Shown here: piece by piece, positions 42,734 through 63,604 of the stretch
Position numbering within the stretch: the first letter of the stretch is position 1
How the letters are laid out: each line of letters begins with the position of its first letter
The notes under the pieces: generated by a model
What the model was told of the DNA's origin: nothing
The model's database searches: none
What the model saw: the letters and a program-made list of their open reading frames with translations, nothing else
Position numbers and translations under genes: made by a program
From: an uncultured Acidobacteriota bacterium
Lineage (GTDB): Bacteria; Actinomycetota; Acidimicrobiia; Spongiisociales; ZC4RG35
Assembly (NCBI GenBank): GCA_963828465.1
Contig: CAWHEU010000026.1
Location: 43,589-107,588 of the forward strand
Length of the DNA stretch: 64,000 nt
Direction: 5' to 3'

Positions 42734-43081
42734 ATGCAGTACGTGTTGCTGATCTACCAGGGCGACGCGCTCGCGCGACAGGCGGCGTTGCCGGATGAGG
42801 AGCAGAAGCAGGTCTACGCCGACTACGGGGCGCTCAACGAGGATCCACGGGTGACGGGAGGGGTGCCGATGGGGCTTCCGGAGAACGCGACCACGGTGCG
42901 GGTCGAAGACGGCCAGACGTTGACGACGGACGGGCCGTTCGTGGCGGTCAAGGAGGCACTCGGCGGTTACTTCGTCGTGGAGGCGGAGGACCTGGACGCG
43001 GCGATCGAGCTGGCCGCGAAGGTCCCGGCGGCCCGTTTCGGCGGCGCGATCGAGATCCGGCCGAGCGAAACTTATTGGTAG
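42734..43081 (+). CDS. YciI/DGPF family protein
   Basis: TDGPF...KEALGGY...IEIRP; AAGGAGG RBS. Confidence 0.88.
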   Translation: MQYVLLIYQGDALARQAALPDEEQKQVYADYGALNEDPRVTGGVPMGLPENATTVRVEDGQTLTTDGPFVAVKEALGGYFVVEAEDLDAAIELAAKVPAARFGGAIEIRPSETYW

Positions 43082-44244
43082 GCGCGCTCGAGCAAATCTT
43101 CCGCGACGAATGGGGGCGTGTCCTCGCCAACCTGATCGGCTTCCTCGCCGACTTTGACCTCGCCGAGGAAGCCGCCCAAGAGGCGTTCGCGATCGCAGCC
43201 GAGCGCTGGCCGCGCGACGGGCCGCCAGCCAACCCCCGCGCCTGGCTAGTGGTGACGGCGCGCAACCCGCGATCGACCGCATCCGCCGCGAACGCACGCT
43301 CGCAGCCAAGACGCCGCTGCTGGACTTGCCCAGAAGTGTGGAGGACGACGTGGACGGACGACGATCCCGGACGAGCGGCTCGAGCTGCTCTTCACCTGCT
43401 GTCACCCCGCGCTCGCCCTCGACGCCCAGGTCGCGCTCACGCTGCGAACGCTCGGCGGTCTCTCCACGGGGGAGATCGCCCGAGCCTTCCTCGTATCCGA
43501 ACAAACGATGGCAAAGCGCCTCCTCCGCGCCAAGCGCAAGATCAAGGCATCCCGGATCCCGTTTCGCGTGCCGCCCGGCGAACTGCTCCCCGATCGGCTG
43601 GCCGCCGTGCTGGCCGTCGTCTACCTGATCTTCAACGAAGGCTACGGCGGCAAGGGTGAACTGGCGGCCGACGCGATATGGCTCGGCCGAGCCCTGGCCG
43701 AGTTGATGCCCAACGAGCCCGAGGCACATGGCCTGCTCGCCCTGATGCTCCTCAACGACGCCCGCCGCGAGGCCCGCTTCGCCGAGGGCACCATCGTCCT
43801 CCTCCGCGAGCAGGACGGTCCCAGTGGGACGACACTCAGATCGCACAAGGACGGGCAGCGCTCGAGAAAGCGCTCGCACTCGGCAGCCCCGACGTCTACG
43901 TCCTCCAGGCAGAAATCGCCTCGCTTCACCTCGACGAGGAGCAGGACTGGCCGCGGCTCGCCGTCCTCTACGGCGCGCTCGCTCGCCGTACCGGCTCTCC
44001 CGTCATCGAGCTCAACTACGCCGCCGCCCTCGCGGAATCAGGCAATGTCGAAACCGCGCTCGCACTCGTCGAGCGCCTCCACCTCGACCAATACCACTAC
44101 CTACACTCCACCCGGGCCGAGCTCCTCAGCAGACTCGACCGCCCTGAGGAGGCACGCGCCGCCTACCAGCGAGCGCTCGAACTAGTCCACGCCGACGCAG
44201 AACGGCGCTTCCTTCACCAACGGCTCGCCGCCCTCGACGCATAG
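43075..44244 (+). CDS. ECF42-type RNA polymerase sigma factor with C-terminal TPR, three frameshifts (~43267, ~43355, ~43817)
   Basis: DLAEEAAQEAF; LELLFTCCHPAL; YLIFNEGY; HSTRAELL...ERRFL spread over successive frames; DGPF partner upstream. Confidence 0.82.
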
Positions 44245-46399: not shown

Positions 46400-46856
46400 A
46401 GCAGTTCCTTTTCCTAGGGGTGCCTTCGGATGTGATGACCGCCTCGGAAGGTGCGAACGAGCGAACCTACGTCCAAGGATGGCGGAGTCGACAGTTCGCG
46501 AAAAGATTCTCAAACCCAGTTATGCACAAAGCCGGATACCAACGGAGCGATTGCGATAAAAAGCCCAGGTCAGATGGACTTTCCCCCTCCATCGCGATTT
46601 GCAAGGCGGGTCAAATCACAGTGGCGCTGGTGGGGGGAGAGGCGGACCTGTCCGCGTCGAGGCCCATGTCGGGCGTCAGGGCGAGGCCCTCCCTCTGATG
46701 GGTTGACCCTGCGTTTGTCGCTCGCATTGGCAACGTTACTTGCGACGACTTCAACGTGTCAGGCCCGCCCATACCACGGGACTAACCAGACCCCGAAGTG
46801 ACTTTGCAAGTTCATTTGACAACGAATGACCTAAAACGCCTGGTCAGAGAGTTTCG

Positions 46857-46897
46857 CGCTCCCGGCAGGATTCGAACCTGCGCACCCGGCTCCGGAG
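46857..46897 (-). repeat. att site: duplicated 3' half of tRNA-Arg(CCG)
   Basis: cgctcccggcaggattcgaacctgcgcacccggctccggag identical to 63533-63573; flanking tggtcagagagtt is also shared. Confidence 0.92.
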
Positions 46898-48277: not shown

Positions 48278-48414
48278 GCGCCCCCGGCTGGATTCGAACC
48301 TGCGACACCCGGTTTAAGAAACCTGCTCTGTATTAGGACCTCTGAACACCCGAAAACGCCAATAAACATAGGGTTTGCGCGCTCTCTAGGTTTGGCTCGT
48401 TCCGGTGCTCAGTT
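48278..48414 (-). repeat. tRNA-Arg-derived att-like repeat, long copy 1 (tRNA 3' half + ~90-bp conserved arm)
   Basis: ggattcgaacctgcgacacccggttta...aaacctgctctgtatt...cccgaaaacgccaat...ctctaggtttgg...ttccggtgctcagtt; about 15 differences from copy 2 by manual alignment. Confidence 0.9.
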
Positions 48415-49299
48415 CCTTTTGATCCTGAGTGGCCGTGGCGGTCCAGCCAAGGCGGCCCTTGGTGAAGTGCCGCGATGAGGATGGCGGGGATGATCGGGAC
48501 TGCCAGGAGGATGAGGAACTCGATGTCTTCTCCAACGGGCAGGAAGGCCTCATGGAACTGGCTCTGGGTGGTGGCGTTGTAGGAAGCATGAAAGAGCCCG
48601 ACGATGAGCAGGCTGCGATGGGTGTTGTTATAGAACCAGGCCACGATGACTCGGCTGGCCAGTTGAGGGATGAAGAGGACACCGAGGAGAACAAGGCCAT
48701 CGACCACAGATTCCGTTTCGACGATGAATCCGGGAATGTGGAACAGGGCGAACGGGACCGCGACGATGGCGGCGGCTCGGAGCGGCGTGAAGCGGCCTTG
48801 GAGTCTGTCGAAGAGGAACCCGGTCCACCCCACCTCTTCGGCAAAATTGGAGAGCAGGAAGGCAAAGGCCAGGCTCGGGAGGATGGAAGTGAAGAATCTC
48901 GGCCAGTTCTCCGCCACCGCGGATCGCCGGAGCTGTGCCGCCCGAGGCGATGGCGAGCACCAGGGTAAGGACTGTCGGTCCCAACGAGGCAAGCAGGTAC
49001 CAGCCGATCCCAACCCTCCAGCGCAGGCACCGTTGGACAAGGTCCCGTACCCCGCCTTTGCCGTGTACGGCCGAGGTGACGATGAAGGCCGGGACTGCGC
49101 TACCAAGGATGTGCGCGAGCAGGTCGTAGGGAGCGTGCCCATAGGGCAGCAGGTCTCGTCGGGTCAAGGCTGAGGACAGTGCGGCTGTCACGTTGACCGT
49201 GTAGACCATGATCAGGAACGCGGCGACAGGGTGGCGTCCAATCCACCGCCAAAGCGGCGAGTACCAGGCGGCGCTCGGTTGAAGGGCGTCTTGGGACAT
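48386..49299 (-). CDS. CPBP (CAAX/Abi) intramembrane metalloprotease, two frameshifts (~48935, ~48468)
   Basis: HPVAAFL...WRVGIGWY, EEVGWTG, FALFH, FHASYN; 3' end runs into the repeat arm. Confidence 0.8.
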
Positions 49300-49416
49300 C
49301 TCAGTCCTCACGCTTCAAGCGACCAGAGGTCGGACGCTACTCGCGCATAGGAGGAGCGGGTCCTTGCGAGCTGGCGGCCCTATCAACTTTTTCGCAAGAT
49401 CGGCCGATGGTCTTGC

Positions 49417-50766
49417 ATGTCTACCTGGCGCGCTAGCCGGTCGGCCCATCTCAATGGGGTATCGGCCACGGCCGATGCGCTGTCGCACGCGGCCTTATCG
49501 CCTCCGAAGGTCGAGGTCGGCGGTTGGCTGGAGAACTGGACGAACAGGGTCTCCGATCTGGCACGTCTCAGAGAGGCTCATCCCATGGTCGATGCGGTCA
49601 TTGACGAGGTCGATGTCAGGCGGATCCGGGTGGGAGACCAATGGCTTGCCGATTTTGCCTCATGCAACTACCTCGGGTTGGACTGGAACCCGGAGGTGAT
49701 CGAAGCAATACCTGGCTATTTACGTCGTTGGGGTACACACCCCAGTTGGTCTCGGCTGCTGGGGAGCCCGATCATCTACGAGGAGATCGAAGAGCGGCTG
49801 ACGAAGCTGTTGGCATGTGATGACGTCCTCCTCTTGCCGACGATCACCCACATCCACATGTCAGTGATCCCTCTATTGGCCGCCTCGGGAGTGGTCTTTC
49901 TCGATCAGCGGGCGCACAAGACCATCTTCGATGGATGCAGTGTCGCCCGGGGCAATGGAGCCACCATCCATCGCTTTCGACACAACGATTATGAGCACCT
50001 GGAACAGCTTTTGAAGTCAGACAAGCGTTCTCCGCGTGTCATAGCTACCGATGGTGTCAACTCGATGACCGGGAATGCGCCAGACACCCATGAACTGGCC
50101 CGCTTGGCCAGAGAGTACGACGCTTTGCTCTACATCGACGACGCCCACGGCTTTGGCATCGTCGGTCATCGGCATCCCAATGAGCTGAGCCATTACGGAA
50201 TGTCGGGTGACGGTCTGATCCGACATCAGGGTGAGAGCTACGACAACGTCGTGTTCGTTGCGGGGATGTCCAAGGCGTATTCATCGCTCCTTGCTTTCCT
50301 CGCTCTCCCCACCCCGCTCAAGAACCTGCTCAAAGTGGCGGCGCCGCCCTACCTTTTCTCAGGACCGTCGCCGATCGCAACCCTCGCCACGGCGGCGGTC
50401 GGGCTCGAGGTCAACGAACGGCAGGGCGACCAATTTCGCTATGAAATCTGGCGGAAGACCAGATCGATCCTCGATTGCCTCGATGACCTGGGCATCTATA
50501 CACCCAACACATCGGGGTTCCCCATCATCGAGATTCCACTGGCCCGTCATGAGGATATCGACGAGGTGGGCCGCTTTCTGTTTCACCAAGGTATCTATGT
50601 GACCCTCGCCGCATACCCGCTCGTTCCCAAACATGAGGTCGGGTTCAGGATCCAGGTCACCAGCGCCAACGATGACGACCAGATCGATCGGTTGTGCGAG
50701 GTCATCGTGGAGCTGGCCAGACGTTTTGCCTTTCAGGAACCAGACACGACCAGGCAAGTGAGCTGA
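49417..50766 (+). CDS. PLP-dependent alpha-oxoamine synthase (AONS/BioF/CqsA/SPT fold)
   Basis: FASCNYLGL, AHKTIFDG, FRHND, DGVNSMTG, DDAHGFG, GMSKAYS (PLP Lys), YLFSGP. Confidence 0.9.
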   Translation: MSTWRASRSAHLNGVSATADALSHAALSPPKVEVGGWLENWTNRVSDLARLREAHPMVDAVIDEVDVRRIRVGDQWLADFASCNYLGLDWNPEVIEAIPGYLRRWGTHPSWSRLLGSPIIYEEIEERLTKLLACDDVLLLPTITHIHMSVIPLLAASGVVFLDQRAHKTIFDGCSVARGNGATIHRFRHNDYEHLEQLLKSDKRSPRVIATDGVNSMTGNAPDTHELARLAREYDALLYIDDAHGFGIVGHRHPNELSHYGMSGDGLIRHQGESYDNVVFVAGMSKAYSSLLAFLALPTPLKNLLKVAAPPYLFSGPSPIATLATAAVGLEVNERQGDQFRYEIWRKTRSILDCLDDLGIYTPNTSGFPIIEIPLARHEDIDEVGRFLFHQGIYVTLAAYPLVPKHEVGFRIQVTSANDDDQIDRLCEVIVELARRFAFQEPDTTRQVS

Positions 50767-50769
50767 ATC

Positions 50770-52992
50770 ATGGCCACCGGCGAGCTAAGGAGACTTCTCG
50801 GCACACCGGAGCCCGTGTCGCTGAGCTTTGTCCGCTCCAGGGAGTCAGGGTGGAAGATCTACTTCCTGGTCGGCTCCGTGGTGCTGGCCGGATTCCTCGT
50901 GATTCCATCATTGCGGGTTGGGCCCTTGTTCAACGTGATCGCCCTATCCGGTGCGCTCGCCATCATCTTCACGCTCAGGCGGCACCGTCCTGAGCAACGC
51001 ATCCCCTGGCTTTTGGTTGCGGTAGGCCAAATCGTCTTCGTGGGTGGGGACATCATCACCTACAACTACGAGCGGTTCTTCGGTGGGGAGCCACCTTTCC
51101 CCTCGTTAGGAGACCTCTTCTATCTGACTGTGTATCCGTTCCTGGTGGCAGGGATTCTCCTGATGATTCGCCGCCGCAGCCCGGGTCGAGATCGGGCGAG
51201 CCTGATCGACTCACTGATCATCGGGTTCGGCGTAGGCACACTGTCGTGGGTCTTCCTCATCGCCCCATACCTCTATGACCCGACTCTGACTGTGTATCAG
51301 AAAGTGGTGGCCATGGCCTATCCAGTCATGGACCTGGTCCTCCTCACCGTCGCCGTCCGTCTCGGCATGGGGGCAGGCAAACGATCGGCTGGCTTCTACT
51401 TGATGATGGGCTCGATCGGAGTCCTATTCATCACCGATGTCATATACGGCTGGATCGTTCTGCACGGGGGCTACGACAACTCCACAGGATACCTGGAAGC
51501 GGGTTGGGGTTTGTTCTACCTCCTGCTGGGAGCGTCGGCTCTGCACCTGACAACACCGTTGATCGAGACCCCCGAGCCCGAGTACGAGCCAACTCAGCCG
51601 CGCCTCAGGGTCCTGCTTCTGGCGTGCGCCGCCTTGATGGCTCCAGCGGTGAACATTGTTCAGTCCTTGCGCGGGGAGGCCGTTGACGTCCCGATTGTCT
51701 CGGCAGCCGGGGCTCTGATGTTCATCTTTGTGCTGGTGCGCCTCAACGGTCTTATGGTGGACATAACCCAATATCGAAGGACCGCCCGGGCGCTCACCGA
51801 GGCCGAGGCGAAGTATCGATCACTGGTGGAAGGGCTGCCCGCCGTCGTGTATGTCGCCGACTTCGGCGAGCAGGGTGATTTCACCTACGTCAGCCCGCAG
51901 ATCGAGTCCGTGCTGGGTTTCAGGCCAGACGAGTTTCAGACAGCAGCGTTTTGGAAGGATCGCATCGTCCCAGAGGACAGGGCGCGTGCCGTAGACGCCG
52001 AACTGCGCCTGGCAGCTGGCAATAGCCGGCTCGAGGTCGAGTACCGGATCCTCGGAAAGGATGGCCGGGAGGTCTGGATACGAGAGGACGCTGATGCAGT
52101 CCGTGACGAAAATGGCATTCCCCTTTATCTGCAAGGGGTGATGTACGACGTCACCGAGCAGAAGACCATCGAACAGAAATTGGTCAAAGCCCTCGAGACC
52201 GAGAAAGAGACCAACCGAATTCGCTCCGAGTTCGTTCTGATGATCAACCACGAGCTTCGCACCCCACTCACGAGCGTCGTGTCCGGCGCCGAGGTGATTG
52301 CCGACCTCGATCTGCCCGAGGACGACCGACAGATGATCATCGCGGACATGCTGCGGGACGGTAGACGACTGGATGGGCTGATCTCCCAGATGTTGACGGT
52401 CGCCCGCATAGAGAACAGCGGACTCAACTTCAGCCTCACCAGGACGGAAGTGAGCAGTGTCCTCGGGCGTATCAGACAGACGGCCGACAGCCGGCTCTAC
52501 GCTCTGGACGACGCCTGGGCCGGCGACGCAGTGGTCAACACGGACCGCGACGCCCTTGTGCAGTTGCTCACTTCGCTCGCCGACAACGCCTTCACTCATG
52601 GGGCATCCAAGGTGGCGATCCAGGTCACCCCAACCCTCCGATTCAACCCTATGCACACTGTTGGGGTCCAACCACCCCAGACCTTGTTCTTCCTGGTCTT
52701 AGACAACGGACCTGGCATCGACCGGGAGTTCCTGCCTCGTGCCTTCGGGAAGTTCGAGAAGCACAGCAGGAGCTCAGGTACGGGACTCGGCCTCTATCTA
52801 GCGCGCCTCATGGTGGAGGCCATGCAAGGCGCCATCTCAGTCCACACCGGGCCCACCGGCACGATCATGGCGGTAGGGATCCCACTCGTGTCGGTCGACG
52901 GGCCTACCACGGATTCGGTTCCGGTCCTTGCGAGCAACGAGCACGATGCGACGGGTGCGTCTCCGCGACTGCCGCCGACATTGGCTGAATGA
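50770..52992 (+). CDS. Multi-TM (about 10 helices) PAS-domain sensor histidine kinase
   Basis: Membrane domain with PFPSLGDLFYL; PAS/PAC (YVSPQIE...EYRI...VWIRE...DVTEQK); H-box NHELRTPLT; DNA, DNGPGI, GTGLGL. Confidence 0.92.
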   Translation: MATGELRRLLGTPEPVSLSFVRSRESGWKIYFLVGSVVLAGFLVIPSLRVGPLFNVIALSGALAIIFTLRRHRPEQRIPWLLVAVGQIVFVGGDIITYNYERFFGGEPPFPSLGDLFYLTVYPFLVAGILLMIRRRSPGRDRASLIDSLIIGFGVGTLSWVFLIAPYLYDPTLTVYQKVVAMAYPVMDLVLLTVAVRLGMGAGKRSAGFYLMMGSIGVLFITDVIYGWIVLHGGYDNSTGYLEAGWGLFYLLLGASALHLTTPLIETPEPEYEPTQPRLRVLLLACAALMAPAVNIVQSLRGEAVDVPIVSAAGALMFIFVLVRLNGLMVDITQYRRTARALTEAEAKYRSLVEGLPAVVYVADFGEQGDFTYVSPQIESVLGFRPDEFQTAAFWKDRIVPEDRARAVDAELRLAAGNSRLEVEYRILGKDGREVWIREDADAVRDENGIPLYLQGVMYDVTEQKTIEQKLVKALETEKETNRIRSEFVLMINHELRTPLTSVVSGAEVIADLDLPEDDRQMIIADMLRDGRRLDGLISQMLTVARIENSGLNFSLTRTEVSSVLGRIRQTADSRLYALDDAWAGDAVVNTDRDALVQLLTSLADNAFTHGASKVAIQVTPTLRFNPMHTVGVQPPQTLFFLVLDNGPGIDREFLPRAFGKFEKHSRSSGTGLGLYLARLMVEAMQGAISVHTGPTGTIMAVGIPLVSVDGPTTDSVPVLASNEHDATGASPRLPPTLAE

Positions 52993-54278
52993 TGGAGCCG
53001 GTGGTGGGCAAACGATCCGGCGCCTTCAGGCTCTTTCGACCTCTACGAATTCGGGACTTCAAGTTGCTTTGGACCGGACTGGTCGTCTCGCTCATCGGGG
53101 ACGGCATGTTCTTGATCGCCCTGGCCTGGCAGGTCTACGAGCTTTCCAATTCCCCCAGCGCATTGGCAATCGTCGGGGTGTCGATGTCGGTATCCCACGT
53201 TCTGTTCCTGTTGGTCGGTGGTGTGATCACTGATCGACTGGATCGGAGGATCGTGATGATGGGCGCCGACGTGGTCCGCGGGACGGCGGTAGCAGCTCTG
53301 GGCATCCTTACATTGAGCGGGAACATCGAGCTCTGGCATATCGTCGCTCTGGCGGCTGTCTACGGGGCCGGCAATGCCTTTTTCGGCCCGGCATTCGATG
53401 CGATCGTCCCAGACGTGGTCCCCCCTGATCAGCTGACACAGGCGAACGCCATGGACCAGCTCGTCCGGCCCGCCGCGTGGCATATGGCCGGGCCGGCCAT
53501 TGGGGGAGTCGTTGTAGGGGTGCTGGGTGCGGGGGCTGCCTTCCTCATCGATGCCGGCACGTTCGCCGTCTCCATCTGGGCACTGTCTTTGATCAAGTCG
53601 AGACCCAGCCAACAATCTGAAGTGAGGGACGGATCGCTGTTCGGGGAGGTCGCTGAGGGTTTCAGATACGTGCGACAGCGGGTTTGGCTATGGGGCACAT
53701 TCCTCGCGGCGACCGTTGCCTACCTCGTCTTCCTCGGCCCGATCGAAGTGCTCTTGCCTTTTGTCGTCAGAAACGAAATGGGTGGTTCGGCCACGGACCT
53801 CGGATTCGTCCTTGCGGTGGGAGGCGTGGGCGCCATCGGAGTTGCGATGCTCATCGGTGCACGAGGGATTCCGCGCAAGAACATGACGTTCATCTACATC
53901 ACGTGGACGATCTCGACGTTGGCTGTAGCCGGTTACGGTCTGGCCAATGTTCCGTGGCAGGCCATGATCGCCGCGTTCATCTTCGGCTCGTTCGAAGCGG
54001 CTGGTCTGATTGCATGGATCACGACGAAGCACCGGTTAGTTCCCCGTCACCTACTTGGGCGAGTGTCCAGCTTGGACTGGTTCATCTCAGTCGGTCTCCT
54101 GCCTGTCTCATATGCAATGACGGTCCCAGTCGTGGAATTCCTAGGTCCCAGATCGACCTTGATTGGTGCCGGGGTCCTGGGGGCAGCCGCCACCCTCGCA
54201 TTCCTCTTCCTTCCTGGCATGCGTGATCCTGAGGAGCTCCAAGAAGTTGGCACTGAGGTCGAATTGACCATTGCTTGA
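52989..54278 (+). CDS. MFS exporter (DHA3, Tet(V)-like)
   Basis: GGVITDRLDRR, LGPIEVLLPF, LLGRVSSLD; ATGA overlap with the kinase stop. Confidence 0.88.
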   Translation: MMEPVVGKRSGAFRLFRPLRIRDFKLLWTGLVVSLIGDGMFLIALAWQVYELSNSPSALAIVGVSMSVSHVLFLLVGGVITDRLDRRIVMMGADVVRGTAVAALGILTLSGNIELWHIVALAAVYGAGNAFFGPAFDAIVPDVVPPDQLTQANAMDQLVRPAAWHMAGPAIGGVVVGVLGAGAAFLIDAGTFAVSIWALSLIKSRPSQQSEVRDGSLFGEVAEGFRYVRQRVWLWGTFLAATVAYLVFLGPIEVLLPFVVRNEMGGSATDLGFVLAVGGVGAIGVAMLIGARGIPRKNMTFIYITWTISTLAVAGYGLANVPWQAMIAAFIFGSFEAAGLIAWITTKHRLVPRHLLGRVSSLDWFISVGLLPVSYAMTVPVVEFLGPRSTLIGAGVLGAAATLAFLFLPGMRDPEELQEVGTEVELTIA

Positions 54279-54342: not shown

Positions 54343-54480
54343 GGCGCCCTCGGCAGGATTCGAACCTGCGACACCCGGTTTAGGAAACCTGCTCTGTATT
54401 CGGGTCTCAGACACCCGAAAACGCCAATGAACATGGGGTTTTCGCGTTCTCTAGGTTTGGCGCGTTCCGGTGCTCAGTTT
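54343..54480 (-). repeat. tRNA-Arg(CCT)-derived att-like repeat, long copy 2
   Basis: Reverse complement ends GGTTTCCTAAACCGGGTGTCGCAGGTTCGAATCCTGCCGAGGGCGCC (anticodon loop TT-CCT-AA, T-arm, acceptor 3' strand). Confidence 0.92.
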
Positions 54481-56793: not shown

Positions 56794-56932
56794 GGCGCTC
56801 TCGGCAGGATTCGAACCTGCGACACCCGGTTTAGGAAACCTGCTCTGTATTTGGGTCTTAGGATGCCCGAAAACGCCAATGAAGATCGGGTTTTCGCGTT
56901 CTCTAGGGTCGGCGCGTTCCGGTGCTCAGTTT
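56794..56932 (-). repeat. tRNA-Arg(CCT)-derived att-like repeat, long copy 3
   Basis: About 10 differences from copy 2 over ~138 bp by manual alignment; same orientation. Confidence 0.92.
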
Positions 56933-57476: not shown

Positions 57477-58331
57477 TCAGGTTCCGGGGTGTTCCTCGCG
57501 ATCAGCCGCCGGTCGGTACGACAGACGGCCCCGGGTGATGACCGCGATGAGTATGGCGGCGATGATGATGACGCCGTTGAGTATCAGGAATCGATCCTCG
57601 GCGGTGGCCGGGATGAACTCTTGCGTGAAGGGTCCGTTGGTGGTGTTGAACGCCGCATGGAACAGACCGACCAGGAACAGGCTGCGGTTTGTGTTGTTGT
57701 AGAGCCATGCCACCAACACTCGGCTGCCTAGTTGGGGGATGGCGAGGAGGCCGAACACCAAAAGGGTTTCCTGGGTCGAACCGGTCTCCTCATAGAAACC
57801 CGGCAAATGAAACAGGGCGAATGGGATCCAGACCAACAGGCAGGCTTTGAGCGGGCCGTAGCGATCTTGCTGCCTGTCGAAGAGAAACCCGGTCCATCCG
57901 ATCTCCTCGGCCAGGTTGGAAAACAGGGCAAAGAGCAGGTACGGCAAGACCAATGTGAACAGGGACGGCCAATTGTCCTCCAACGCCTCCAGTGGAGCGG
58001 TGCCCAATAGGGCGGTGGCGGCCAGAACTGCTGCGACCGGTACGAAAAAGATTGCAAAGAAATACCAGCGGACCCCCACCCGCCACCGGAGGGTTCGGCG
58101 GGCTAGGTCCCGCACGCCGTCCCGACCATGGACGGCTGCCACCACCAGGAAAGCAGGGAGAGCCGACCCAAGGTAATGGCCCAACAAGTCGTAGGGGGCG
58201 AAATCGAACGGCAGTAGGTCTCGTCGGGTCAGAATCGACGGCAACGTCACTGCAATATTGACCCCGTAGACCATGACCAGGAACGCCGCCACGGGATGGC
58301 GGACCACCAAACGGCGGATAGAACCGCTCAT
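57477..58331 (-). CDS. CPBP (CAAX/Abi) intramembrane metalloprotease, intact paralog
   Basis: EEIGWTG, FALFH, FHAAFN motifs. Confidence 0.88.
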   Translation of the reverse strand: MSGSIRRLVVRHPVAAFLVMVYGVNIAVTLPSILTRRDLLPFDFAPYDLLGHYLGSALPAFLVVAAVHGRDGVRDLARRTLRWRVGVRWYFFAIFFVPVAAVLAATALLGTAPLEALEDNWPSLFTLVLPYLLFALFSNLAEEIGWTGFLFDRQQDRYGPLKACLLVWIPFALFHLPGFYEETGSTQETLLVFGLLAIPQLGSRVLVAWLYNNTNRSLFLVGLFHAAFNTTNGPFTQEFIPATAEDRFLILNGVIIIAAILIAVITRGRLSYRPAADREEHPGT

Positions 58332-58494
58332 GGCTGGCTCCGGAGCCAAAGCTCCGTTGAGACGGGCTGGATGGTTCGACCAAGGACCAGAATGGGACCG
58401 GAGACCACCGCCCTCTGGTCCACCTGTTTTCGAAGCACCGCGGCCAGTGCCATCGAGATCGACAGCACGGCGACGCAGCTCACCGAGGCGAGTG

Positions 58495-63532: not shown

Positions 63533-63604
<72 letters not shown>

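Follow-up and report, generated by a model that had tools for sequence, protein, structure and literature searches.

A distinct alpha-oxoamine synthase clade is encoded beside, or fused to, a predicted ten-helix membrane sensor domain across Actinomycetota: a candidate chemical signalling system

Introduction

The closest described counterparts of the locus reported here are the Cqs, Lqs, and Jqs systems, whose synthases (CqsA, LqsA, and JqsA) are always encoded adjoining a membrane sensor kinase according to one account (PMC3566124), and a sensor design with six transmembrane (6TM) helices is mentioned in the abstract of another (PMC4821796). Here we analyse a stretch of 64,000 nucleotides (nt; hereafter the window) from an uncultured bacterium of the class Acidimicrobiia (phylum Actinomycetota; contig CAWHEU010000026.1, named C26 below, of assembly GCA_963828465.1), in which a gene for a pyridoxal phosphate (PLP)-dependent enzyme of the alpha-oxoamine synthase (AOS) fold is followed by genes for a membrane histidine kinase and a major facilitator superfamily (MFS) transporter. 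A preliminary description of this DNA had read the three genes as a Cqs/Lqs-like module that makes, exports, and senses a signal. We find that the enzyme belongs to a clade that adjoins, or is fused to, one and the same ten-helix membrane domain throughout the phylum, and the enzyme–sensor–exporter set appears, from its gene content, to be a strong candidate for a new chemical signalling system.

A second point of reference is offered by the Streptomyces proteins with GGDEF and EAL domains, which turn over cyclic diguanosine monophosphate (c-di-GMP). In a 2018 survey of these proteins, the signals that they perceive are stated to remain unknown, and the architecture of CdgF from S. venezuelae is given as 10TM-PAS-PAC-GGDEF-EAL, with no AOS domain entered for it in the paper's table (PMC6205966). 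As described there, this architecture matches the commonest partner of the enzyme clade examined below, a likeness of description and not of sequence. In our own sample, all eight genomes (8/8) of a genus that we take as Streptomyces (g41) match the membrane domain. In the literature searched, outside which lay most subscription journals and supplementary files, we found no description of the enzyme–sensor pairing or of its fused form.

The enzyme clade is linked to one membrane domain

The three genes are co-directional on the plus strand, namely the AOS gene (gene 1; 49417-50766; an open reading frame (ORF) of 449 amino acids (aa) matching Pfam Aminotran_1_2), the gene for a ten-transmembrane (10-TM)–PAS–histidine kinase (gene 2; 50770-52992; ORF of 740 aa), and the MFS_3 transporter gene (gene 3; 52989-54278; ORF of 429 aa matching Pfam MFS_3). 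Genes 1 and 2 are separated by a gap of 3 bp (...TGA atc ATG...), and genes 2 and 3 overlap by 4 bp (ATGA), the start codon of the transporter overlapping the stop codon of the kinase; ORFs and junctions are thus those of the tight operon that the preliminary description had proposed. In promoter and terminator scans of 49.1-54.6 kb, the one promoter-like site that appeared (1.3 would be expected) was on the wrong strand. The same description had seen no bioA, bioD, bioB, acyl carrier protein (ACP), or sphingolipid gene nearby, and in our Pfam scans of chosen neighbouring ORFs between 44 and 61 kb (which did not include a family-by-family search) no bio, carrier-protein, or lipid gene was detected either.

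Related loci were gathered with the enzyme alone, and the best 80 of 418 confirmed matches were fetched. They come from Acidimicrobiia, Thermoleophilia, Streptomyces, Actinoplanes, Frankia, Mycobacteriales, and one metagenome-assembled genome labelled as Chloroflexota. All stop-to-stop ORFs of these loci were searched with a profile of the membrane domain of gene 2, and matches were accepted if they spanned half of the model or more. In 74 of the 80 loci, a ten-helix homologue identified in this way lies beside the enzyme, and partial matches at a contig end or across a frameshift were found in three further ones (L004, L006, and L021), which brings the total to 77/80. In the last three (L029, L057, and L073) the flank is too short to judge; every assessable locus among the 80 has the sensor domain. 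Several of the gene calls in the high-GC loci are rough.

The proteins that carry the domain differ in what follows it. The commonest partner of the enzyme is a protein of ~1,050-1,090 aa, in which the membrane part is followed by (GAF)-PAS-GGDEF-EAL in all of those scanned (7/7). A histidine-kinase output occurs in nine cases (the window, L003, L005, L012, L015, L016, L021, L034, and L038), and two of these loci (L015 and L016) have both sensor types, kinase and PAS-GGDEF-EAL, in one operon. In 17 Streptomyces loci, sensor, PAS, GGDEF, EAL, and AOS are joined in one stop-free ORF of ~1,500-1,850 aa, with the Pfam order in L062 being the membrane part, then PAS-GGDEF-EAL-Aminotran_1_2; both NCBI and JGI annotate such fusions as single genes (1,491-1,501 aa). 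In the other 60 of the 77 loci with a sensor-domain match, AOS is a separate gene. Because linkage is equal with a kinase or a GGDEF-EAL output, the pairing follows the input domain and not the output. The preliminary description had asked whether the same membrane sensor accompanies this clade throughout, by linkage or by fusion, and the lack of linkage that would have spoken against its proposal is not what the loci present: adjacency or fusion of the enzyme clade with the ten-helix domain is phylum-wide, whatever the output.

The transporter is a less constant companion. An MFS_3 homologue (48-74% identity) is present in 46 of the 80 loci. Some of the loci without it have, immediately 5' of the enzyme gene, genes for an EamA transporter and for an ADP-forming acyl-CoA synthetase (Pfam matches in L031, with the same ORF families in L027 and L028), others have a divergently transcribed MFS_1 gene, and in some a short-chain dehydrogenase (SDR) gene adjoins the enzyme.

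A second sample, made up of 301 evenly drawn Actinomycetota genomes, was searched for the sensor domain (E<=1e-10) and for the enzyme clade (E<=1e-70). The domain was found in 105 genomes (four of them unpublished, i.e., G018, G120, G148, and G239) and the enzyme clade in 32 (G120 included), 31 of which also hold the domain. Outside the source genome there are 34 enzyme places, and 29 of them (one in G120) have a sensor match, among the matches listed, on the same contig within ~4 kb; four of the 29 are fused ORFs of 1,473-1,637 aa. Another 63 sensor matches lie beyond those listed, and the five places without a listed match were checked on fetched DNA: one has a weak sensor match 2 kb away, two are at contig ends, and two (L170 and L171) have the enzyme only.

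Five genomes (one of them G148) have a close homologue of the sensor (42-47% identity) and no enzyme at the above threshold. In one genus, two genomes keep the sensor in a syntenic place, and two others also hold an enzyme insert there (~5 kb in L181, where it also includes an SDR gene and two other genes, and ~3.8 kb in L182). Such receptor-only relatives of producers are a pattern to be expected of a shared diffusible signal. In one carrier genome, the sensor gene adjoining the enzyme is interrupted by a TGA and lies in two pieces (G092:C9:968897-969818), a sign of decay.

Phylogenetic position and catalytic residues of the enzyme

The product of gene 1 matches Pfam PF00155 (Aminotran_1_2) with 95 bits and lies below the curated cut-off of every NCBIfam model. 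Its best-scoring model is bioF (TIGR00858; 186 bits, cut-off 426.45), and its scores against the models for serine palmitoyltransferase (SPT; NF047599, NF047600, and NF047603; 125-159 bits, cut-offs 500-670), 2-amino-3-ketobutyrate CoA ligase (KBL; 136-152 bits, cut-offs 460-493), 5-aminolevulinate synthase (ALAS; 117 bits, cut-off 339), and CqsA/LqsA (NF005526; 89.6 bits, or 89.1 in the genome search, cut-off 428) are all far from the respective thresholds. Among solved structures, the top match is Thermus BioF/KBL (7poa/8s1y; 152 bits), and CqsA structures score far lower (62 bits).

Nevertheless, the enzyme has the fold of the superfamily and the PLP catalytic residues that BioF, KBL, and SPT also have, i.e., the Lys of the Schiff base, the His stacked on PLP, the paired Asp and His, and the Arg that binds the carboxylate. 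The set H167, D212, S216, D241, H244, K286, and R411 is conserved in 21/21 rows of the clade, including two Streptomyces fusions, and is aligned, with the letters checked, to H133, E175, S179, D204, H207, K236, and R361 of E. coli BioF in what we take to be the numbering of that protein. The motifs in which the preliminary description saw deviations from BioF are all present, namely SCNYLG (82-87), HKTI (167-170), DGVNSMTG (212-219), and GMSKAYSS (283-290), and many of their positions are invariant among 54 relatives. The clade is unusually conserved, with a mean column identity of 68% over 54 sequences from several classes (53 loci entered this alignment). It differs from BioF in signature residues, having C83 for N47, I143 for G108, T144 for F109, G283 for T233, and G316 for T266.

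Outside its own clade, the closest proteins among 1.84 billion representatives show 35-44% identity to the enzyme (~240-335 bits) and are mostly C-terminal domains of long proteins, whose Pfam architectures are AMP-binding-ACP-AOS, KS-AT-DH-ACP-AOS (KS, ketosynthase; AT, acyltransferase; DH, dehydratase), and ACP-AOS. We placed the enzyme among these and the characterized families in a maximum likelihood tree of 75 rows (quick search, LG+G4, midpoint root, support by the Shimodaira-Hasegawa-like approximate likelihood ratio test (SH-aLRT) only), which comprised 21 of the 80 clade loci, 28 of 150 representatives, 7+1 CqsA/LqsA-type and 4+4 SPT-type sequences (seven and four of them, respectively, over the cut-off), seven BioF-type sequences with E. 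coli BioF included, and E. coli Kbl together with L150 and L151, which grouped with it. A branch with 100% support splits BioF, KBL, SPT, and CqsA/LqsA from the clade of the window enzyme, other stand-alone relatives, and the carrier-linked domains. Support for the clade of the window enzyme is 98-99%, and the carrier-linked AOS domains are its sister group. The four over-cut-off SPT sequences form a separate clade with 100% support that does not include the window enzyme, and the seven over-cut-off CqsA/LqsA sequences are likewise a clade to themselves, on the same side of the split as BioF, KBL, and SPT. A joint clade of the enzyme with CqsA/LqsA, a grouping tested after the tree had been seen, is rejected by the approximately unbiased (AU) test (delta lnL 84.8, p 0.0017). 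Grouping with BioF or SPT, the outcome that the preliminary description had named as fatal to its proposal, is not what a phylogeny including BioF, KBL, SPT, CqsA, and LqsA supports. Membership of the CqsA/LqsA family is likewise ruled out by the score below the cut-off, the separate clade, and the AU test.

Judged by its residues and its place in the tree, the gene 1 product is predicted to be a catalytically intact AOS of a distinct actinobacterial clade, which by descent appears to be nearest to the thiotemplate off-loading AOS domains of polyketide synthase (PKS) and fatty acyl-AMP ligase (FAAL) megasynthases. Like those carrier-linked domains (FAAL-ACP-AOS, KS-AT-DH-ACP-AOS, and ACP-AOS), which are its nearest outside relatives, it has the signature residues C83, P109, R113, I/V143 (I143 in the enzyme), T144, G283, and G316. 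Unlike them, it is a stand-alone protein in the window and is paired with a sensor rather than with a megasynthase; no AMP-binding, PP-binding, or ketosynthase domain was found in the enzyme or its scanned neighbours. The only other AOS paralogue of the source genome (C24:79013-80089; L002/L083) scores 316 bits against the bioF model (cut-off 426) and groups with E. coli Kbl, and a BioF over the cut-off was not found in this genome, which is 92% complete.

The ten-helix sensor domain and the transporter

Residues 1-335 of gene 2 (50770-51774, plus strand) gave no Pfam match even at E<=10. Their AlphaFold2 (AF2) model (predicted local distance difference test score 90.7 and predicted TM-score 0.88, built with 56 homologues) has ten transmembrane (TM) helices, and because these are joined by short loops, a sizeable extracytoplasmic domain is lacking. 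The PFPSxxDxxYL motif by which the preliminary description had recognized an orphan membrane domain is located at 109-119 (PFPSxGDxxYLxVYP). In an alignment of 56 domains (to which 55 of 72 sensor segments contributed), P111 and Y118 are invariant, with P109, F110, and D115 nearly so; D94, D147, D188, D223, R136, R280, and R324 are invariant as well, and the invariant positions of the alignment include buried Asp, Arg, Tyr, and Trp residues. A Foldseek search of the model against the PDB yielded no match at E<=0.001. A wide VIA-align search related residues 44-264 to bundles of seven helices (7TM) with Z of 9-11.8, below the level that the tool sets for trusting matches between helical bundles, and matches in the ESM Atlas were to unnamed actinobacterial clusters only, with a weak MASE4/MASE3 lead at 0.83. 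By these comparisons, the ten-helix domain is a predicted new family without a Pfam model, in line with the orphan status that had been proposed for it.

The membrane part is followed by a PAS domain (residues 347-465; 51808-52164, plus strand; Pfam PAS_3 71 bits, plus PAS and PAS_4) and by HisKA (residues 485-549) and HATPase_c (592-706) domains (52222-52887, plus strand; 47.6 and 60.4 bits, respectively). With the H-box HELRTPL, the phospho-acceptor His of HisKA, and HATPase_c, gene 2 has the features of a two-component kinase. No receiver domain (PF00072) was found on contig C26, the 22 matches of the genome being on other contigs, and a search with the REC hidden Markov model (HMM) detected none in the window, just as the preliminary description had noted no response-regulator gene nearby. 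Because no receiver domain is encoded on its contig, the kinase is an orphan, as in seven of the eight other kinase-type loci; the REC HMM found a receiver domain near one of them only (L038). The source genome holds a single copy of the sensor domain.

Two observations concern its relatives. In L009-L011 and L013, a conserved family of ORFs (f20; 366-488 aa) with a weak receiver-like match lies 3' of the GGDEF-EAL sensor, of which it could be a downstream partner. Genomes of family f15 (e.g., G150, G136, and G215) have seven or more ten-helix paralogues, in ORFs of ~540-800 aa, and one or two copies of the enzyme, an excess suggestive of a large family of receptors whose outputs or ligands differ.

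Gene 3 scores 148 bits against Pfam MFS_3 (PF05977; gathering cut-off 27). In NCBIfam it reaches 240.6 bits with 2A0121 (cut-off 319.6) and 260.6 bits with Tet(V) (cut-off 640), lies below the EntS cut-off too, and has weak matches to lysophospholipid-transporter models (23.5-35.5 bits). Its product is a 12-TM MFS_3 transporter of the EntS/Tet(V)-like kind with a presumed role as an exporter.

A candidate synthase–sensor–exporter module and its alternatives

The linkage described above can be explained if the enzyme makes an exported, aminoketone-type signal that is read by the ten-helix domain, so that the module would work like Cqs and Lqs without being a member of that family; we give this explanation about an even chance. 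As judged from the chemistry of the superfamily, the enzyme would condense an acyl-thioester and an amino acid, with loss of CO2, to an alpha-aminoketone. The MFS_3 transporter may carry this product or a derivative out of the cell. Once released, the product, or a reduced or dimerised derivative, would partition into membranes and bind the ten-helix domain, and the gene 2 sensor would thereby read the compound inside the membrane. Binding of the ligand would set the activity of the kinase here (with a response regulator encoded elsewhere in the genome) and the synthesis or breakdown of c-di-GMP in other organisms. The cluster of invariant acidic residues in the sensor would suit an amine-bearing ligand. 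In the Streptomyces fusions, reception and synthesis could be under direct mutual feedback, a logic comparable to that of diffusible signal factor (DSF) signalling, in which RpfC holds RpfF. We infer from gene order that the product of the enzyme is the ligand of the sensor and that it is exported and acts between cells. On this hypothesis, the PFPS...YL membrane domain would gain a candidate ligand class.

In several respects the module resembles Cqs, Lqs, and Jqs: the gene of an AOS-fold PLP enzyme adjoins that of a polytopic membrane sensor without a large external domain (77/80 loci here), and the logic of making, releasing, and sensing within the membrane would be the same, as a shared arrangement and not as shared descent. 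It differs from CqsA and LqsA in that the enzyme is not homologous to them at the family level (89.6 bits against a cut-off of 428, and opposite sides of a fully supported split). The sensor has ten predicted helices rather than six, the number that we assume for CqsS/LqsS-type sensors. In most cases the output domains here are those of c-di-GMP turnover, many of the loci include a dedicated transporter, and sensor and enzyme can be fused. When six-frame ORFs in the 1.5-kb flanks of eight CqsA/LqsA-type or -like genes (seven over the cut-off and one below) were searched with the sensor HMM, the best E was 0.46, the sensor genes in these flanks being incomplete. Hence the label Cqs/Lqs-like holds for the placing of the synthase gene next to the sensor gene and fails for descent, as score, tree, and AU test agree. 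From the proposed make-export-sense module, the enzyme–sensor linkage stands, whereas the exporter is confined to 46 of the 80 loci and a kinase is not the usual output.

Several points weigh against the signal hypothesis. All claims about the ligand are deduced from gene order, because product, export, and binding alike are read from genes. Neighbouring genes share descent, so the loci, many as they are, do not count as independent observations. No MFS_3 exporter was found in 34 of the 80 loci, among them 13 of the 17 Streptomyces fusions. For a diffusible signal, the fusion of synthase and receptor in one protein is unusual; such a fusion is compatible, too, with an enzyme that the sensor regulates or that serves as its output. 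The two enzyme-only loci (L170 and L171), with flanks of 5 kb or more on both sides, lack a sensor, and in one of the two genomes the sensor domain is missing altogether (E<=1e-10); the enzyme of L171 (G176:C244) carries an in-frame TGA, a sign of decay. Since the domain is more widespread (105/301) than the enzyme (32/301), most of its members would sense something else, or a signal from other cells. Complex prediction with the enzyme and membrane-domain alignments scored 0.00 in two runs, which is no answer and evidence in neither direction.

The fusions bring up an alternative that we consider rather unlikely, in which the enzyme is the output or regulated partner and makes a membrane aminolipid or long-chain base; the sensor would then read an unrelated membrane or envelope cue, exert control through contact, fusion, or c-di-GMP, and the MFS protein would be a flippase. 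The AOS domain of the Streptomyces fusions is C-terminal, after EAL, which is the usual place of output modules, and the frequent absence of the exporter (34/80 loci), the action of the nearest relatives on carrier-bound and often long acyl chains, and the weak lysophospholipid-transporter matches (23.5-35.5 bits) would all be in agreement with this alternative. However, the equal linkage with a kinase or a GGDEF-EAL output follows the input domain, close relatives keep the sensor and lose the enzyme at the same locus, and there is no conserved lipid-synthesis gene in the neighbourhood, all of which argue against it.

Considering that the enzyme falls within the superclade of PKS- and FAAL-linked off-loading domains, that relatives of MFS_3 include the exporters EntS and Tet(V), and that the module is patchily distributed and occupies a repeat-bounded, low-GC setting in the source genome, it might also be a secondary-metabolite cassette. 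Its product would then be an aminoketone, or a dimer of the pyrazine type, with a bioactivity directed at other organisms; the MFS protein would serve export or self-protection, and the sensor would regulate the pathway. We regard this as unlikely: a mean column identity of 68% across classes is more than one would expect of an antibiotic pathway that diversifies, further tailoring genes are not conserved, and receptor-only genomes fit listening better than production.

A third possibility, improbable in our view, is that the PLP protein is itself sensory or regulatory, binding an amino acid or a thioester and tuning the partner sensor with no released product, in the manner of the GabR/MocR regulators, in which an aminotransferase-fold domain is a regulatory module. 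The fusion of AOS to a signalling protein in 17 Streptomyces loci would suit such a role. Against it, AOS is a separate gene in most loci with a sensor match (60/77), no residue of the full catalytic set varies, the carboxylate-binding Arg and the PLP-stacking His among them, and AOS has transporter genes nearby, joined in some loci by a gene for an acyl-CoA synthetase or an SDR. Finally, the view that the enzyme is an ordinary BioF/KBL paralogue of primary metabolism and a chance neighbour of a kinase and a pump, which could be taken from the automatic annotation of many homologues as 8-amino-7-oxononanoate synthase and from bioF being the best-scoring NCBIfam model, is close to refuted by scores below every NCBIfam cut-off, a fully supported branch that separates the enzyme from BioF, KBL, and SPT, different signatures in the active-site region (C83, I143, T144, G283, and G316), the second paralogue of the source genome that groups with KBL, the absence of bio and sphingolipid genes among the scanned neighbours, and sensor adjacency in 77/80 loci.

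Genomic setting of the module

The operon lies between copies of a ~137-nt repeat. The left copy (48278-48414) resembles, over its first ~53 nt, the 3' half of tRNA-Arg(CCT) on the minus strand, the right copy (54343-54479) begins 65 bp past the transporter stop codon and contains a weak tRNA match (54352-54414, minus strand; Rfam, 24.3 bits, below the gathering score), and a third copy, recognized by DNA similarity, is found at 56795-56931. Between the left copy and the AOS gene there is a gene for a CPBP/Rce1-like membrane protease (48333-49311, minus strand), apparently frameshifted, in two overlapping frames, one of which has a Pfam Rce1-like match. Because the left copy lies past this broken gene, the repeat-bounded unit is 6,065 bp and includes more than the three genes. 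An intact CPBP/Rce1-like paralogue (57477-58349, minus strand; Pfam Rce1-like), similar in DNA to the broken copy, follows further on, and each of the two paralogues is placed just after a copy of the repeat.

Seven further full or partial copies of the repeat, spaced by 0.6-12 kb, form an array on another contig (C25; 106-127 kb; L175/L176), which starts at or downstream of an intact tRNA-Arg(CCT) gene; the arrangement looks as if small gene cassettes had been added one after another at a tRNA-derived site. On a larger scale, a ~40-nt partial copy of tRNA-Arg(CCG), representing its 3' half (46856-46895; DNA similarity), and the intact tRNA-Arg(CCG) gene (63533-63604, minus strand; ARAGORN; Rfam tRNA 67.9 bits) bracket a 16.7-kb stretch, mostly of lower GC, that contains the module; its GC content is 58-63%, compared with 62-68% in most of the remaining window. 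An Rfam scan of 44-64 kb detected only the tRNA-Arg gene and the sub-threshold tRNA-like match in the right repeat. The ORFs that were scanned in the window and in the C25 array include no integrase or recombinase, so that the repeats are unproven as true att sites and a mobile element is unproven as well. The two att-like repeats of the preliminary description thus do flank the operon, and to them are added a third copy, a protease gene inside the unit, and the lack of a recombinase among the scanned ORFs. The module was found in none of 21 sampled genomes of the same class (three from its family, another three from its order, and 15 others from the class). Its horizontal acquisition as a cassette is likely, as suggested by the repeats, the GC content, and this distribution. 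At 43075-44244 (plus strand), three overlapping ORFs appear by eye to be one extracytoplasmic function (ECF)-type sigma factor broken by frameshifts, presumably of the SigJ family.

Implications

Few of the primary signals are known that control the c-di-GMP enzymes and orphan membrane kinases of Actinomycetota, a point on which the 2018 Streptomyces survey is explicit (PMC6205966). One large, unnamed family of ten-helix sensors, present in 105 of 301 genomes, is now tied to one highly conserved biosynthetic enzyme, and this pairing turns the question of the ligand into a direct experiment, i.e., the product of the enzyme against the response of the sensor. For such testing, nature provides producer strains, strains with the fused form, and receptor-only strains.

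A broader proposal, to which we give somewhat less than an even chance, is that Actinomycetota own a phylum-wide system of cell-to-cell signalling, in which a membrane-active, aminoketone-type autoinducer made by an AOS would be perceived by a ten-helix intramembrane receptor acting mainly through c-di-GMP or through a histidine kinase, with receptor-only eavesdroppers and with a Streptomyces fusion that could provide direct feedback. If true, this would add a new class of signal and a new class of receptor to bacterial communication, and, c-di-GMP being the messenger that governs Streptomyces development, it would provide a link to the development and antibiotic production of these organisms.

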